From: an uncultured Gemmatimonadales bacterium
Lineage (GTDB): Bacteria > Gemmatimonadota > Gemmatimonadetes > Gemmatimonadales > GWC2-71-9
Reading direction: 5' to 3'
Length of the DNA stretch: 64,000 nt
NCBI GenBank assembly: GCA_963821525.1
Contig: CAWGED010000019.1
Coordinates: forward strand, 352,001-416,000
In this document: positions 16,560 through 41,488 of the stretch, piece by piece
Position numbering within the stretch: the first letter of the stretch is position 1
Layout: every line of letters begins with the position of its first letter
Translations under genes and position numbers: made by a program
Notes under the pieces: model-generated
Database searches by the model: none
Seen by the model: the letters and a program-made list of their open reading frames with translations, nothing else
What the model was told of the DNA's origin: nothing

Positions 16560-18401
16560 CGTCTTTTTCGGGATTGGCCATCGATAGCCTGCACTGTCTA
16601 GAATCCCCGGCGGATGCTCCCCCATCACGCCCAGCTGCTTCTCCAGCGCCACCCCTACCCTGCCAAGCGTTCCCTCATCAAACAGCCGACCGATCAGGGT
16701 AATCCCATGCGGCACTCGCCGGGGCGGGTTGAACTTGGGCAACGGATTGGCGGGATCGGGCGCCCAATCGCTGCGGGCCTCGGAGATCTGGACGAATCCG
16801 GTTCGCATGGTGAGCGAGGGATGGCCCGTGTTGTTCGAGATCACCAGCATTTCATCCCGCAGGGACGGAACGACGAGGAGATCCACCTCGGCCATCAGCC
16901 GCGCCATCTCCATCGCCACCTTGCGCCGCAACCGGTCGGCCTGCACGAAGTCAACGGCCGAGAGGAAGCGGGCCTCGCGGAACAGATTGGGCCACGCGTC
17001 GGGCACCTGGACCTTGAGCTGATCGGCTTGACCACTGAGCGTCAGCTCCTCGAACGCCGCGGCCGCCTCGGCGAAGAGAACCAGATTGAGCGAATCGTAA
17101 GGCCAGTCGGGGAGAGAGACTTCGGTCGGGACCATTCCGAGTTTCCGGAACTCGTCGAGGGATGCCCGGTCCACATCGGTGGCCGGACTCTCTTTCATCC
17201 ATGAGTCTATGTAACCGACCTTGAGTCCCTTCACCGAGGCGCTGGCATCGAAGTCGAGTTTGCTGGGGACACTGGCGACGTCACCGGCATCGGGGCCAGC
17301 TGATCGCCTGAAGCACGAGCAGAGTGTCTTCCACGCTCCGAGTCATCGGCCCGAGCTTGTCCAGCGACCAGCAGAGCGTCATCGCTCCGGTCCTTGCGCA
17401 CCCGCCCGTAGGTGGGCCGGAGACCGTTGATGCCGCAGCGCATGGTCGGACTCACGATGCTCCCGCCGGTCTCGCTCCCGATGGAGAACCCGACCAGGCC
17501 GGCCGCGGTCGCGGCACCGGGTCCCGCGCTCGACCCCGACGCGCCCTCTTCAAGCACCCAGGGATTCATCGTCTGTCCCCCGAACCAGATGTCGTTGAGG
17601 GCGAGAGCGCCCAGGCTCAGCTTCGCGATTAGCACCCCGCCGGCCGCGTTGAGCCGGGCCACGACCGCAGAGTCCGCGGTGGGGACCCGATTCCTGAACG
17701 GCTCCGCGCCCCAGGTCGTCACTATGCCGGCGGTATCGAGCAGGTCTTTGACGCCGTAGGGAATTCCGTGCAGCGGTCCGCGGTACTTTCCCGCGGCAAT
17801 TTCCTTGTCCGCCTGGCGCGCCGCAGCGAGCGCTCCTTCCTTGTTCAGCGTGATGATGGCGCGAAGCTTGGGATCGAACTTCTCGATCCGGGCGAGATAG
17901 ATCCCCGTCAGCCGTTCGGACGTCAGCTTCTTCGACTGGATCCAGCGAGAGAGTGCGGTGACCGGCGCAAAGGCAATGTCGGCGTCGCTCTGACGGAAGC
18001 GGGCCTGGATCTACGCTGCTCCGAACGAACCGGTCCTGCTTGGGACCAATCGCGATTCCGGGTAGTGCCGGATCCCAGCGCGTCGCCGGCGAGAGCGTCG
18101 GCTCGAGCGCGAGCTTCCGCGGTCCGGTCCGCCGCTCCAGCTGGGCGGCCATCGACCGGCGCCAACTCTTGGCCGCCATATTCCGCTGCTCCGGCGTCAT
18201 CGTCACCTGCATCAGCTTCTCCGCCTCGGCGAATGTCCCGGCGTTGACTTCGGGTCCGGTTTCCGGCGCCGTTCCGAAGGTCGGCGGTGCTCCCGGAGTC
18301 GTCGGCGTTGAGGCGGCAGGCGTCTGCTCCTTCTTGCTGCAGCCGGCGATAGCGCCGAGGATGATCGGCGCCTGGATCAGGAATTGGCGGCGAGTGTTCA
18401 C
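16551..18401 (-). CDS. amidase signature family lipoprotein (Tat signal), several frameshifts; true stop probably near 16598
   Basis: TRRQFL...IAGC; GSSAGPG, GSETGGSI, GLRPTYGR, GITLIGRLFDE across ORFs 17550..18437, 17231..17722 and 16551..17234. Confidence 0.85.
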
Positions 18402-18438
18402 GGGCTCTCCGAGCGGAGGGGCGACGTTGCATAGCACC

Positions 18439-20912: not shown

Positions 20913-22727
20913 GTGGCTACTCCGTCGCAGGTCTCTTCTTTCGGCCGTGTGGTGATCATCAAACCGATCCGCGATTCGTTCCGCAACCTGGTGATGCACG
21001 GGCGGCGGCGGCTCGCGGCAGGCTCGTCCTGGGTCCATCTCACCTGGCGGCGTGACGAGGATCCGGCGCCCGCCGAACCGTCTCACTTCGAATGGGTCTG
21101 CGCATCCGTTGCCCTGCTGCTCGGGCTTCTGCTGCGGTTGGTCTACGTCATCCGCCAGCCGGTCAATTCCGATGAACCCCAGCACCTGCATGTGGCCTGG
21201 GGCTGGGCCCATGGCCTGATGGAATACCGCGATGTGTATGACAACCACACGCCTCTGTTTCACGTTCTGATGGCGCCACTGGTGTGGATCGTAGGCGACC
21301 GCCCGGAGCTCTTCATGTGGGCTCGGCTGGCAATGATCCCGCTGTGGGCGTTTGACGTTAGTCGCGACGTATCTCGCCGGCCGTTCGCTCTATGGCCGCC
21401 GGGTGGGCCTTTGGGCAATGGTCCTCGCGGGACTCTTGCCGCCGATGTTCGTCAAGAGCGTCGAATTCCGCACTGACGATCTGTGGGCCATGTGCTGGAT
21501 GTGGACAATCGCCGTGCTGGTGGCCGGCACCTTCACGCCCGCGCGCGGGTTCTGGAGCGGCCTTCTCATCGGGCTATGTGCGGGCGTGTCCATAAAGACC
21601 GGGCTCCTGGTGACCGCGCTGGGATGGGGCCGCTCTCGCGAGCGTCGCACTGCCATTGAGCCCAGCGAGCCATTCCCAACGCGCCCGGTACCTCTCCTCG
21701 GTCGCCTCGATGGCGGTGGGGATGACCCTCGTCCCCCTCGGTATCATCCTGTGGTTCAAGGCACACGGGGCCCTGCAACCGATGCTCAACGGGACGATCT
21801 GGTTCAACATGGAGCCGAATACCACGCAGAGGCCTTATCGAGATGTTCGGCATGGTGCCTGCGCTGCTCACTCTGCTGTGGCTCGACTCCCGCATGAAAC
21901 GATGGGCTCCTGCTTCTCCGCTCGCCGGGCGTCGCAGGGTCTTGTTCTTGACGGTAGGTGTTTTCTTGATTCTCGAGCTGACGGTCTGGCCCGTCGACCG
22001 CTGGCAGGATTTTCTCCCGGTCTGGCCCATGCTCACGATCCTCTTCGTCGCGGCAGCGGAGGGGATGGGCCGGGTGCAACCCGCGAAGTGGAGCGGATTG
22101 CGGATTGCGGCCCTGCCCCGTTTCCCCCTGATGGCCGGGTTAGAACTCGCAGTACTGCTCCTGGTACTCCCCCACAGCACTGCCCTGGCGCACCAGGTCA
22201 AGACGTGGCACGCCGTGCTCCGCCTGACCCGTGCCGGCGATTACGTGATGGATGAAAAGGGCGAGCTGCTGTTTCGCCGCCGGGCATACTACTACGAGCT
22301 CGAAACCATCACGCGCGCCCGCATCGCGCAGCATCTGCTTCCCGACGACATCCCCCAGAGCCTGGTGCGGACCAACACGCTGGTTGTGGGACCTGACCTG
22401 CGGCATTTCCCGCCGCGCGATCGCGCATTCATCGAGGCCAACTACATCTCGGTCGGTCCCCTCCGGGTCGCCGGACAAATCCTCAGCCCTTCGACCAGCA
22501 ACGGTTCCGACCCAGCGAATCGAGCCATCAGCTTCGAGATCAGGATTCCTGCGTGGTACAGCATCGTAGACAGCTCGGGACCCGCCCAAGGCTCGCTCGA
22601 TGACGTCCCCCTCTCTGGGCCGCGCTTCCTCGGCGTGGGCAGCCACACCTATCAGCCTGCCTACGACAATGTCCGCACCGCGTTGGTCCTCGCCAAGGCC
22701 ATCGATCTGGGCTTCCGGCCGTTCTGA
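20913..22727 (+). CDS. GT-C (ArnT/PMT-like) membrane glycosyltransferase, several frameshifts; start uncertain
   Basis: NSDEPQHLHVAW, YRDVYDNHTPLFH, EFRTD, many TM segments over ORFs 20913, 21352, 21656 and 21843. Confidence 0.65.
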
Positions 22728-24225: not shown

Positions 24226-25432
24226 CTACAAATACGACCACCACCATCCCCGCCCGCCCTGTTTCTTGATTCCGAACCAGCGGCAGAACGGGTAGAGTCC
24301 CACCACCACTGCGATCCAGACCAGGTAGATCACCGGCAACCCGAAGCCGTAGGTGCTGGGTAGCTGGCGGTAGATCTTGGCCATCTCGCCCACCGAGTAT
24401 CCCTGAACTGCGCCTCCGGCGATCGCTGCAAGGTGGATGACGTACAGATGAGCCACATAGTAGAAGAGCGGGACCTGGCCGAAGACCCGGAGCCACTCCG
24501 CGACCGGGCCCCGCAACCGCTCCAGGAAAGCCAACCCCACCAGCGCGGGTCCCAGGGTGATCAGCAGGAACTGAAGCGACGCGGGATACTTGGTCACGTT
24601 GATGAACGAGAACAGCGTCATCAGGCCGTTGCGTTGCGGGCTCCACGGGGCGGGATCGCCGTAGACATTGAGCGTCCTGAGCACCAGGAATCCCGCGATC
24701 ATCGCGAGTCCCAGGCGGACCAGAGTCCGGCGCCGCTGATCACCCGGCAGGTCCAGCACGGGACCGAGGAGGTAGCCGAGCGCCATCACGCCGATCCAGG
24801 GCAGCAGGGGATAGGTCACGAACACGGGCAGCCCAGGGAGCTGGCCCTGGACATGGAGCACGGTCCACAGCGTCGCGAGGCTCCCCTGCATCCTGCGGCG
24901 TGATGCCATCCAGCAGGTTATGTCCGGCGACGATGGCGACCGCAATCGCCAGGATCGTCGAGCGGGGAAGGTAGACCAGCCCGGCCAGAGCGATCATCGA
25001 GACTCCGATCGCCCAGATCACCTGGGCCCGCAAGCCGAGCTCGAAGCGGAAATTGAGGTACCAGGCGAATGACACCAGGGTGAACTCGAGCAGCACCAGC
25101 CAGAGCCCACGCTTGAGCAGGAAGCCGGCGAGTTCACCCCGGCTCCGCCGACGGCCCGCGAGCCAGGCGCTGGTCCCCGCGAGCAGCACGAAGGTGGGGG
25201 CGCAGAAATGGGTGACCCAGCGGGTAAGGAACAGCGCAGCTGTGGTCTGGGTCAGATCCGTCGCATCGAATCTCGCCGACGTGAAATAGTCCCGGACATG
25301 ATCCAGGGTCATGACGACGATGACCAGGCCACGCAGCATGTCCACCGAGGTCAGACGTTTGCTGCCGGCGCCGGGCGTAGAGGGACGCGCCGATGAAGTC
25401 GACGGACGTGGGGCAATCGCGGCGGTGTTCAC
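24226..25432 (-). CDS. DUF1624 / HGSNAT-like membrane protein, frameshift near 24890
   Basis: RLTSVDMLRGL...DHVRD, RWVTHFCAPTF, YPLLPWIG, KYPASL, GQVPLFYYVAH, WWSYL. Confidence 0.85.
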
Positions 25433-25549
25433 GGTCTTCCATGTTAGGGACCGGTTCGTGATGGAGCTATTTCGCCGCCGCGAACTTATCGGTAGGAATT
25501 CGGCCTACACGCTTAGAGGTCTTGCCTCCTTACCCGGCGAGGGCAAAGA

Positions 25550-25588
25550 AAAAGCTCCACAACGAGTGTCGTTGCGGAGCTTCGTTTT
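25550..25588. terminator. terminator downstream of tRNA-Pro
   Basis: aaaagctccacaacga-gtg-tcgttgcggagctt with flanking A/T runs. Confidence 0.65.
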
Positions 25589-25594
25589 CAACCA

Positions 25595-25668
25595 TCGGGA
25601 CGGCGGGATTCGAACCCGCGACCCCCTGAACCCCATTCAGGTGCGCTACCGGGCTGCGCTACGTCCCG
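25595..25668 (-). tRNA. tRNA-Pro(GGG)
   Basis: Reverse complement CGGGACGTAGCGCAGCCCGGTAGCGCACCTGAATGGGGTTCAGG...GGTTCGAATCC...; no encoded CCA. Confidence 0.95.
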
Positions 25669-25705
25669 TCAACAAATACGTCTCTCTGTTTCTGTCCCCC
25701 TCAAA

Positions 25706-25890
25706 GCTACCGGGCGCGCGAAGCCGTCCCAGCGCAGCGAGGGACCGGCGAACAAATCAAGAGGGTTCGACCCGACCCGACCGAGCGATAGCGAGGGAGG
25801 TCAACCCCATTCAGAGCCTGTCCCGAGCATCGCGAGGGATGCGCTACCGGGCTGCGCGGAGCCTGTCCCGAGCGCAGCGAGGGATCCCGT
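25706..25890 (-). pseudogene. degenerate tRNA-Pro copies interrupted by four REP-like palindromes
   Basis: Exact tRNA pieces aaccccattcag, tgcgctaccgggctgcgc and tcccgt, in order, separated by GAGCCTGTCCCGAGCGCAGCGAGGGA-type units. Confidence 0.8.
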
Positions 25891-26120
25891 GACTACAACT
25901 ACCAGCTAACGGTCTCTGCTTCCCTCGAAGCGGACCGGCGGACGGGCGGAGCCGACCACCCGATCGAACGACGAACCAATCTGAATCTTCAATCTGCAGT
26001 CGCCGACCTGCTCACCCGTCTCAGCGGGCCGGTAAGCTAGTCCGGCACTCCAGCGCGGGGAAGCCCTCGGAATCCGCGCCAGTCGAATATCTTCCATAAG
26101 CCCTGCGAGGGTTCGCCCTT

Positions 26121-26548: not shown

Positions 26549-26630
26549 CATCACTCAATCCCCACATCCAAACATCCCTCACATCCCTACATCCCTCAAT
26601 CCCTCAATCCCTCAATCCCTCAAATCCCCC
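26549..26630. repeat. 8-9-mer tandem array (CAATCCCT/CACATCCCT)
   Basis: Direct reading, between convergent genes. Confidence 0.85.
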
Positions 26631-26844: not shown

Positions 26845-27362
26845 CGTGGTCCCGATAGGGGAAGCATTGGTGACGGACCCCGGAAAAGTGGGGCGGTCAC
26901 CCGGCGCCGACAAGACTGCCTTTAGGCCATACGGCCCTTAAAGCCATGGGCCATAAGCCACAAGCTCGAGGCTGGGCCGGTCGGACCGCGCCGGAGGCAA
27001 CTTGACGGCCTGCTGTGGATGGAAGTGGGAATTCGTGAGACGGTCGCGAGTCGTGGTTCGTGAGTCCTGGGTCGCGGGACCCATGACTCATGACACTCGC
27101 CGATCAGAGATTGCTTTTGACGCTAACAGAGTGGCGCGCGGCCAGCCCCGGGTTGAACCACAGAGCGCACCCTTCGAACGACCTGCGATCCCGGAGAAAA
27201 CTCTCCGAGGCCAGCCTCGCGGGCGCAGCAGGAAGCAGGTCGCGGGCCAAGCTCGGACTAATGGTTAAGTTATTCTAATGATTAGACTTACAAATAATTC
27301 AACAGTGTCGAATCAAATCCTCGTCGCGGCGTCTTACCTGCAGCGTGGGCGGGATGAGCATG

Positions 27363-27473
27363 GGCGGGATGGCGGAAAGGCGGTAAGGCGGGAGGGCGGT
27401 CGGGGCGGTCAGGGCGGACGGGGCGGACGGGGCGGACGGGGCGGACGGGGCGGACGGCGGCGGACGGGGCGGA
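27363..27473. repeat. G-rich 8-9-mer array (GGGCGGACG and variants)
   Basis: About 12 units, 5 of them exact GGGCGGACG. Confidence 0.9.
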
Positions 27474-41311: not shown

Positions 41312-41385
41312 GGAGCAAGGAGTAGAAGTAAGAGTCACGACTGGGGGTGAAAGCTAGACCGGAAAAGGGTGCCTGCTCTAGCACC

Positions 41386-41431
41386 TCATCCCGAGGACAC
41401 CCCGAGCGAAGCGAGGGGGTCCGAGGGATCC
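41386..41431. repeat. nested REP-like palindrome
   Basis: tcatcccgag[gacaccccgagcgaagcgagggggtc]cgagggatcc. Confidence 0.75.
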
Positions 41432-41488
41432 AGCCTTCTCATTCACTGTTCGCCCGTTCACCCCACAGTCCTGAGTCCTCTCAACCCC

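Follow-up and report, generated by a model that had tools for sequence, protein, structure and literature searches.

The window, i.e. the whole stretch of 64,000 nucleotides analysed here, originates from the genome of an uncultured Gemmatimonadales bacterium that is referred to as G000, while other genomes, loci, contigs and sequencing runs bear G-, L-, C- and X- labels. A single tRNA-Pro(GGG) gene is located in the window, and in pairwise alignments it was identical at 74/74 positions in G001, G003 and G004. It is preceded by an array of broken tRNA copies and hairpins, the features of which are:

25551..25583, minus strand: terminator-like hairpin 3' of the tRNA from a consensus scan, which is not evidence of function
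25595..25668, minus strand: intact tRNA-Pro(GGG) (ARAGORN; Rfam RF00005, 64.6 bits)
25669..25705, minus strand: linker or leader between dead copy 2 and the intact tRNA, with 28/37 matches to the linker that follows the corresponding copy in G004
25706..25748, minus strand: dead copy 2 with acceptor start, decayed 25-nt unit (25722-25744) and D-arm piece (25706-25719); the copy breaks off within the D arm
25749..25776, minus strand: presumed deleted remnant of the 3' part of the cassette (variable-loop piece, fold-back, leader), deduced from G001, G004 and other spacers
25777..25802, minus strand: first hairpin of an anticodon-loop insert, with the break at standard position 38/39 and the remainder deleted here
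25803..25814, minus strand: dead copy 1, 5' stem and loop of the anticodon arm, identical to 25629-25640
25815..25839, plus strand: tagged mini-hairpin unit of 25 nt where the D stem and the anticodon stem meet, motif on the template (plus) strand, identical in G003 and G004
25840..25857, minus strand: dead copy 1, D arm, identical to 25642-25659
25860..25884, plus strand: tagged mini-hairpin unit of 25 nt within the 5' strand of the acceptor stem, a site also filled in G004 and other loci
25885..25889, minus strand: dead copy 1, first five tRNA bases, by sequence match to the tRNA
26034..26039, minus strand: possible native -10 box of the tRNA transcript, deduced from a block common to G001, G003 and G004

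The tRNA was the sole match in the Rfam search, which returned no intron family, and a promoter scan near the tRNA detected no full consensus site. Short heptamer tandem repeats occur in the tRNA leader (25895-26000) and at the ends of neighbouring genes (26555-26630, 27300-27400).

The tRNA pieces of dead copy 1 keep the order of the gene and are separated by the inserts, and a second decayed 5' piece follows them, as the preliminary description of the locus had read it. Exact 9-mer matches to the tRNA cover 40 nt of the 300 nt upstream of it (null mean 1.1), a content reached by one of 20,000 random genome windows. The consensus of the 25-nt unit matches 25859-25884 without and 25814-25839 with three mismatches, with no matches expected by chance. 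Four units had initially been assigned to one family. Based on the alignments this holds for 25860-25884, 25815-25839 and the decayed 25722-25744 only, whereas 25777-25802, which is 26/26 identical to the start of a 76-nt insert in G001, is assigned to an older layer of anticodon-loop inserts. The stretch 25764-25774, formerly taken for a T-loop-like piece, more likely represents what a deletion spared of the variable loop, plus linker, a state also observed in the relatives.

Contigs of three sequencing runs from three studies (X1, X5 and X15) carry 25777-25890 with no listed difference. At 25777 loose contig ends in X5 and X15 run on into a longer insert; the long anticodon insert is present in related strains and the version of the window is cut to its first 26 nt. 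Independent sequence support, as called for in the preliminary description, was thus obtained for this part but not for 25688-25759, which had no contig cover in four runs, an absence that proves nothing by itself. The latter section shows four single-base gaps relative to G004, and a frameshift at approximately 24883 in a neighbouring gene of this assembly is absent in G001 and G003. This gene (24226-25442), a member of the HGSNAT_cat family, is intact in G001 and G003, and its splitting by one base is probably an assembly error; the overlapping ORFs 20913-22727 and 17550-18437 look frameshifted as well. Due to the four gaps, the nearby frameshift and the lack of contig cover the fine detail of 25706-25748 is uncertain, and the decay of dead copy 2 may in part be consensus error. 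The existence of this copy, described earlier as a third partial copy at 25706-25757, is supported by its alignment with the homologous copy in G004 (38/42 matches). The nearby indel errors and the section without cover might also be taken as signs of an assembly artefact or of a one-off decayed duplication. Such a reading is most improbable, and for the array as a whole it is ruled out by the contigs of the three runs, by homologous arrays in G003 and G004 and by the occurrence of the cassette described below in dozens of contigs. The array is therefore confirmed to be real, and the comparison with relatives established that the locus is not a solitary case.

Among the best 30 loci in a search of 61 genomes, copies of the 5' half upstream of tRNA-Pro(GGG) were detected in G000, G001, G003, G004, G006, G017, G028 and G050, and they were also found in G011 and G016. 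The simple form is represented by G001, in which tRNA positions 1-38/39 are followed by the 76-nt hairpin insert, the continuation TCAGGGGGTCG, a linker of approximately 22 nt and the intact gene. As judged from these alignments the basic element is a gene-less cassette composed of a tRNA-Pro(GGG) 5' half, a hairpin insert in the anticodon loop, a short 3' remnant with linker, and the intact tRNA. The 25-nt unit is missing from the G001 cassette, and the ghost copies in G003 and G004 contain extra nested units.

A search for the broken anticodon loop returned 135 loci (46 in genomes and 89 in metagenomes), at 76 of which the 5' half is followed by another tRNA-Pro start within 330 nt; the other 59, being chance matches, island ends or contig-end cuts, were left out of the counts. 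These 76 cassette loci comprise 75 distinct spacers with a median length of 117 nt (range 26-211 nt), and the hairpin inserts of the cassettes are 60-85 nt long. The 3' remnant TCAGGGGG is kept in 55 of the 75 spacers, where the bases preceding it vary (CG in 29, GA in 13 and CA in 6). Tandem cassette arrays occur, some of them with non-identical copies. All named records with the cassette layout belong to the Gemmatimonadota, and a shorter diagnostic pattern, which misses variants such as that of G050, was detected in 14 of 301 genomes of the phylum, all of them Gemmatimonadales and some of them inspected. A tRNA intron of the group I or bulge-helix-bulge type was considered and rejected, since the 3' half in the cassette is truncated, the bases before the 3' remnant vary and Rfam gave no intron.

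The spacers are 83-89% identical between the genera g1 and g13, compared to a background of 46-50% in the 150 nt upstream, which suggests that the cassette has spread as a unit or is under constraint. Strong matches to the anticodon insert of G001 were restricted to tRNA-Pro loci (5 of 251 genomes of the family), and 23 weak matches were discounted as chance-like. Downstream 3' copies contain comparable inserts that interrupt the T loop, likewise in the GGGT^TC context, the ghosts of other genera are occupied by different hairpin families at different positions, and copy number, insert family and insert position differ between close relatives. Pairwise alignments were used for these comparisons, as the repeats were misaligned by MAFFT. 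Full-length tRNA-Pro copies broken only by hairpin inserts in the anticodon loop and/or the T loop, with island-like DNA adjoining, were observed at three loci (L165, L056 and L095). At the tRNA-Pro(GGG) of G023 (L042-L043; G023:C4:137786-170261) stacked 10-13-kb blocks are bounded by 5'-half/3'-half copies; short direct repeats mark the ends of the blocks, and the contig gave no integrase match.

The anatomy of the cassette recalls that of Islander elements, which likewise combine an upstream 5' tRNA fragment with a restored downstream gene and a break in the anticodon loop (PMC4383910). It could accordingly represent a miniature integrative element or a decayed att site, at which a tyrosine integrase acting in trans recombined in the anticodon loop and restored the tRNA by supplying a 5' half together with a -10 box of its own, the hairpins being later additions. 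The anticodon loop is a known crossover subsite, and a 5' fragment was left by 159 of 3,919 islands in the Islander survey (PMC4383910). Moreover, tRNA-Pro(GGG) is an island hot spot in these genomes, as G001, G004 and G023 have half copies of it at distances of 2-23 kb, and a TAnnnT hexamer is present at -21 to -7 in 25 of 75 linkers, which are related to each other (shuffles: mean 12.4, maximum 24). However, an att crossover would not give the tRNA 3' continuation found after the insert in 55 of the 75 spacers, nor are the split T loops in the GGGT^TC context accounted for. The displaced tRNA end is present in direct orientation as upstream 5' halves, but cassettes of approximately 120 bp contrast with islands of more than 2 kb (PMC4383910), and they keep part of the 3' half, are marked by hairpins and lack both an integrase and the short direct repeats seen at the G023 island ends. 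Taking into account that no integrase match was found at the cassette loci in five relatives, an integrative origin seems unlikely, though it retains an appreciable share of probability.

The second layer consists of the 25-nt unit, in which the tag AGCYTG is followed by a Y-C-C-Y / R-G-G-R stem closing GA-GCGNAGC-GA. Among 30 copies from relatives, taken from 51 matches, the outer stem pair covaries (T-A 18, C-G 10, T-G 2) and the inner pair is C-G in 20, T-A in 9 and C-A in 1. The 18-nt core has 62 matches in G000 at up to two mismatches, and 77 closed-stem mini-hairpins were counted in the genome, 41 of them free with a CCTC/GTC-type tag and 11 with the AGCYTG tag. A slightly different pattern yielded 12 tagged units, of which two are located in the ghost copy, seven in tagged REP-like hosts and three in heptamer repeats, while none is free-standing. 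Thus, ten of the 12 copies lie inside other repeats, and tRNA specificity of the unit is not supported. Its copy number amounts to 2 in G001, 2 in G002, 11 in G003, 36 in G004 and 0 in G016; viral contigs contained four copies, none of them near a tRNA. A tagged REP containing a nested mini-hairpin is located at 41383-41432 of the window, a GACAC-type unit of which the genome has five.

All units in the window share one orientation. The insertion mostly occurred at AG^G with a net replacement of about one base and without target duplication; in 18 of 32 copies AG forms the end of the left flank, and AG^G is likewise what the template strand shows at the tRNA site at 25814. For 15 of 32 flanked copies the flanks joined without the unit match a sequence present elsewhere at up to one mismatch, six of them exactly, and filled and empty sites lie side by side in one array of G004. 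These data support the earlier proposal of a palindromic element that repeatedly inserts into duplicated tRNA sequence and replaces a few bases. As far as can be judged from sequence comparison, the dead halves behave as a sink for hairpin units.

In the 75 spacers GCGNAGC was found 92 times on the template strand and not once on the tRNA strand, compared to shuffle means of 7.0 and 4.4 and maxima of 21 and 10, the spacers being related so that the count does not equal 75 independent trials. As DNA, GCGNAGC folds into a mini-hairpin of very high stability that contains a sheared G-A pair (PMC13037366). The strand bias points to the recognition of single-stranded DNA rather than to an RNA function and would be consistent with strand-specific cleavage of single-stranded DNA. 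DNA folding gave no clear strand difference with a model that omits sheared G-A pairs.

Alternatively, the array could act as a functional RNA leader or decoy, in which the 5' halves tune the maturation of tRNA-Pro, are a source of small RNAs, or serve as a sink for anticodon nucleases or integrating elements. The array is probably located inside the tRNA transcript, the middle unit (25815-25839) is identical in three species, and one metatranscriptome contig, from a single study and possibly of DNA origin, spans 25777-25892 without differences; its end, 2-3 nt upstream of the ghost start, was not counted as a transcript start. An RNA role is nevertheless disfavoured because the conserved motif is biased to the DNA template strand. 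Furthermore, the pattern is absent from 287 of the 301 genomes searched, and the variation in copy number, inserts and insert positions among close relatives is at odds with such a role. A shielding of the real tRNA from mispairing with the ghost was rejected, the acceptor-stem probability being near 0 in the precursors of G000, G001, G003 and G004 versus 0.83 for the tRNA alone, although equilibrium folding is unreliable for such GC-rich RNA; the folding thus showed no protection of the real cloverleaf by the inserts. A leader or decoy function therefore appears quite improbable, and the same strand bias and variability speak against the precursor of functional tRNA fragments that had been considered before. 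The array is probably inert, and among the three options of the preliminary description the dead target fits best.

The search for enzymes that might move the hairpins revealed four short stand-alone GIY-YIG genes (Pfam PF01541) and four Y1_Tnp genes in G000; the short GIY-YIG proteins had no match in NCBIfam. Three of the short GIY-YIG genes (C12:227017, C5:845162 and C8:283051) are flanked by tagged GA-GCGNAGC-GA hairpins, as are their relatives in G001, G003 and G004, and in G004 the 25-nt unit is nested within such flanks; the fourth short gene is at C19:515250. The layout of the flanked genes corresponds to the NTS-ssnA-NTS arrangement, in which SsnA is strand-specific and nicks single-stranded DNA a few bases 5' to its tagged hairpin (PMC11893778). 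The linked RAYT/TnpA-REP or GIY-YIG gene that had been suggested as a check was not found at the Pro loci: an own-genome HMM detected no linked nuclease gene in the pattern loci examined, and the Pro loci contained no GIY-YIG frame. No tRNA was present at 35 and 73 GIY-YIG/RAYT loci of this order, and at L398 a tRNA-Val lies beside a nuclease gene without broken copies. A short stand-alone GIY-YIG gene had no match in the incomplete assemblies of the ghost-bearing genomes G006, G016, G017, G028, G050 and G191. The HMM of tRNA-linked GIY-YIG proteins matched just five known genes in G000, and viral contigs contained two partial relatives of the C12 nuclease and no tRNA.

Several other loci were noted during this search. 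After the tRNA-Val(CAC) of G000 (C18:10535-12218) come two degraded copies of it and a 3' fragment headed by a hairpin, with small gene blocks between them. The gene at C19:859753 and its orthologues carry the GIY-YIG domain at the N-terminus of a frame of approximately 330-360 aa, occur in many members of the bacterial family and have no hairpin flanks. At L390 (G175:C60) a short GIY-YIG gene lies between inverted repeats of a different type and resembles a minimal insertion element. Two contigs of G000 (C12:7145 and C1:35924) carry a near-identical Y1 gene, the flanks of which are near-identical too, owing to a duplication or to strain mixing in the bin.

Outside the window, at G000:C5:984235-984330, a 37-nt 5' copy of tRNA-Ser(CGA) breaks off directly behind the anticodon, and next to it lies a palindrome belonging to the same family as those that flank the Y1/RAYT gene C19:590173; this palindrome type also occurs just after tRNA-Leu(TAA) (C14:2908). 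The Ser-CGA and Val-CAC remnants, both hairpin-marked, are the further interrupted tRNA remnants that the genome had been expected to contain if the locus was no isolated event. Insertion without duplication is typical of IS200/IS605-type chemistry, which together with the four Y1_Tnp genes and the Ser(CGA) ghost was counted in favour of a HUH enzyme (RAYT/TnpA-REP) instead of a GIY-YIG nuclease as the mover of the hairpins. Yet the four Y1 genes are flanked by other palindromes, the GA-GCGNAGC-GA hairpins flank GIY-YIG genes, and none of the 25-nt units flanks a Y1 gene; CGTC-type REPs are reported as never flanking RAYT genes (PMC3733652). For these hairpins a HUH enzyme seems very unlikely, but since the hairpin of the Ser(CGA) ghost belongs to the RAYT-flanking family more than one enzyme class may act.

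In other lineages comparable cassettes do carry a nuclease gene. Ten unrelated genomes were sampled via chance loci; in five Bacteroidota 8 of 14 short GIY-YIG loci adjoin a tRNA (two of them forming one array), most with hairpin-broken copies, compared to 1 of 7 such loci, without broken copies, in the other five genomes. The locus L359 of the Bacteroidota has the same 5'-ghost layout as the Pro array with the GIY-YIG ORF inside, and hairpin-broken cassettes of the 3' type with GIY-YIG were found in Bacteroidota and in another class of Gemmatimonadota. When 401 genomes of the phylum were searched with the profile of tRNA-linked GIY-YIG proteins, the top scores were obtained for tRNA-Asn cassettes in two genomes of this other class (G061 and G067), and a tRNA or tmRNA was called in 3 of the 30 profile loci examined. 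A broken-copy cassette with nuclease gene was not found in the order studied here. The ORF-bearing cassettes (L359, L358, L353, L355, L387 and L388) thus share with the Pro array a hairpin-broken copy beside an intact tRNA, while the latter lacks an ORF, contains hairpins of another family and in addition was invaded by the 25-nt unit as a second layer; the hairpins of the Bacteroidota cassettes are different, near-perfect palindromes.

The hairpin family itself is, on the basis of its motifs, related to described CGTC-type REPs and Ssn-associated repeats. Short GIY-YIG genes with inverted tagged hairpins, as known from the Ssn/NTS/SRM system (Chenal et al. 2025, PMC11893778), occur in this genus too, and the Ssn repeats resemble the present ones in being oriented, strand-specific and 20-50 nt long. 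Their mobility was suggested by the authors but is only suspected (PMC11893778). Ssn is not known to mobilise anything. Hairpin-flanked short single-domain GIY-YIG genes occur with related tagged hairpins elsewhere in G000 and its relatives, but not at the array locus. Furthermore, the tag of the 25-nt unit differs from that of SRM, and the published SRM pattern has 36 matches in the genome, none of them in the array and none with the GAGCGNAGCGA core. The word "tRNA" is absent from the main text of PMC11893778, and nested insertion or tRNA duplication is not among the parts compared.

The main repeat of G000 (41 free copies with a CCTC/GTC-type tag) fits the superfamily of CGTC-tagged REPs and BIME-like clusters (Di Nocera et al. 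2013, PMC3733652). Imperfect palindromes of 20-40 bp in many dispersed non-coding copies are indeed present (62 core matches; 12 units in G000, 36 in G004). However, the unpaired CGTC/TGTC/CCTC tag before an AT-starting 8-9-bp stem is found in the free relatives and not in the unit, which has AGCYTG and a 4-bp outer stem. In addition, G000 has no free-standing copy of the 25-nt unit, and insertion into tRNA copies is absent from the sections of PMC3733652 compared. Prokaryotic tRNA fragments have been traced to integrative elements, CRISPR spacers and tmRNA in a study that does not contain the word "hairpin" (PMC9897764). The parts of the array thus resemble CGTC-type REPs, Ssn/SRM pairs and island scars, and each of them deviates in a defining property. 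The literature search, which covered few subscription journals and no supplements, yielded no description of hairpin-broken tRNA cassettes, in line with the earlier statement that no such system was known.

We consider it somewhat more probable than its opposite that selfish hairpin DNA left the array behind as a non-coding relic, which arose in two steps with the hairpins moved by a GIY-YIG nuclease in trans. In the first step a gene-less cassette would have entered tRNA-Pro(GGG), its hairpin insert of 60-85 nt breaking the 3' edge of the anticodon loop. As the cassette would bring a linker and a fresh 5' half, an intact tRNA would result downstream and a dead 5' half upstream, and recombination between direct repeats of approximately 39 bp could add or remove copies. 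In the second step the 25-nt unit would have invaded the dead halves, which are presumably free of selection and rich in hairpins when single-stranded. An Ssn-like GIY-YIG single-strand nuclease encoded elsewhere, which we infer to be the best candidate for the mover, would nick beside the hairpins, and repair would copy in the unit or the cassette, with only those outcomes surviving that leave an intact tRNA. The invariance of 25777-25890 in related strains, beside an adjacent flank that differs at approximately 14 sites, could reflect constraint, which would count against the relic.

A wider possibility, which we put forward only tentatively and consider rather doubtful, is that small GIY-YIG single-strand nucleases are transposase-like movers of GCGNAGC mini-hairpin DNA which drive a nested hierarchy of ORF-bearing tRNA cassettes, ORF-less intergenus cassettes and the 25-nt parasite unit. 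No dedicated transposase is known for the CGTC-tagged superfamily, and the spread of REP-like repeats without a transposase is an open question (PMC3733652). If the wider proposal were true, the 25-nt unit would be among the smallest mobile DNAs and the missing mover of CGTC-type REPs would be named. The locus supplies a 25-nt substrate, natural pairs of filled and empty targets and a strand rule, and candidate enzymes are encoded in its own genome; the proposal could thus be tested in vitro, and the value of the locus lies mainly in this ready substrate for testing small GIY-YIG nucleases as repeat movers. It furthermore shows that tRNA fragments can arise otherwise than from integrase islands and thus bears on the annotation of tRNAs and islands.
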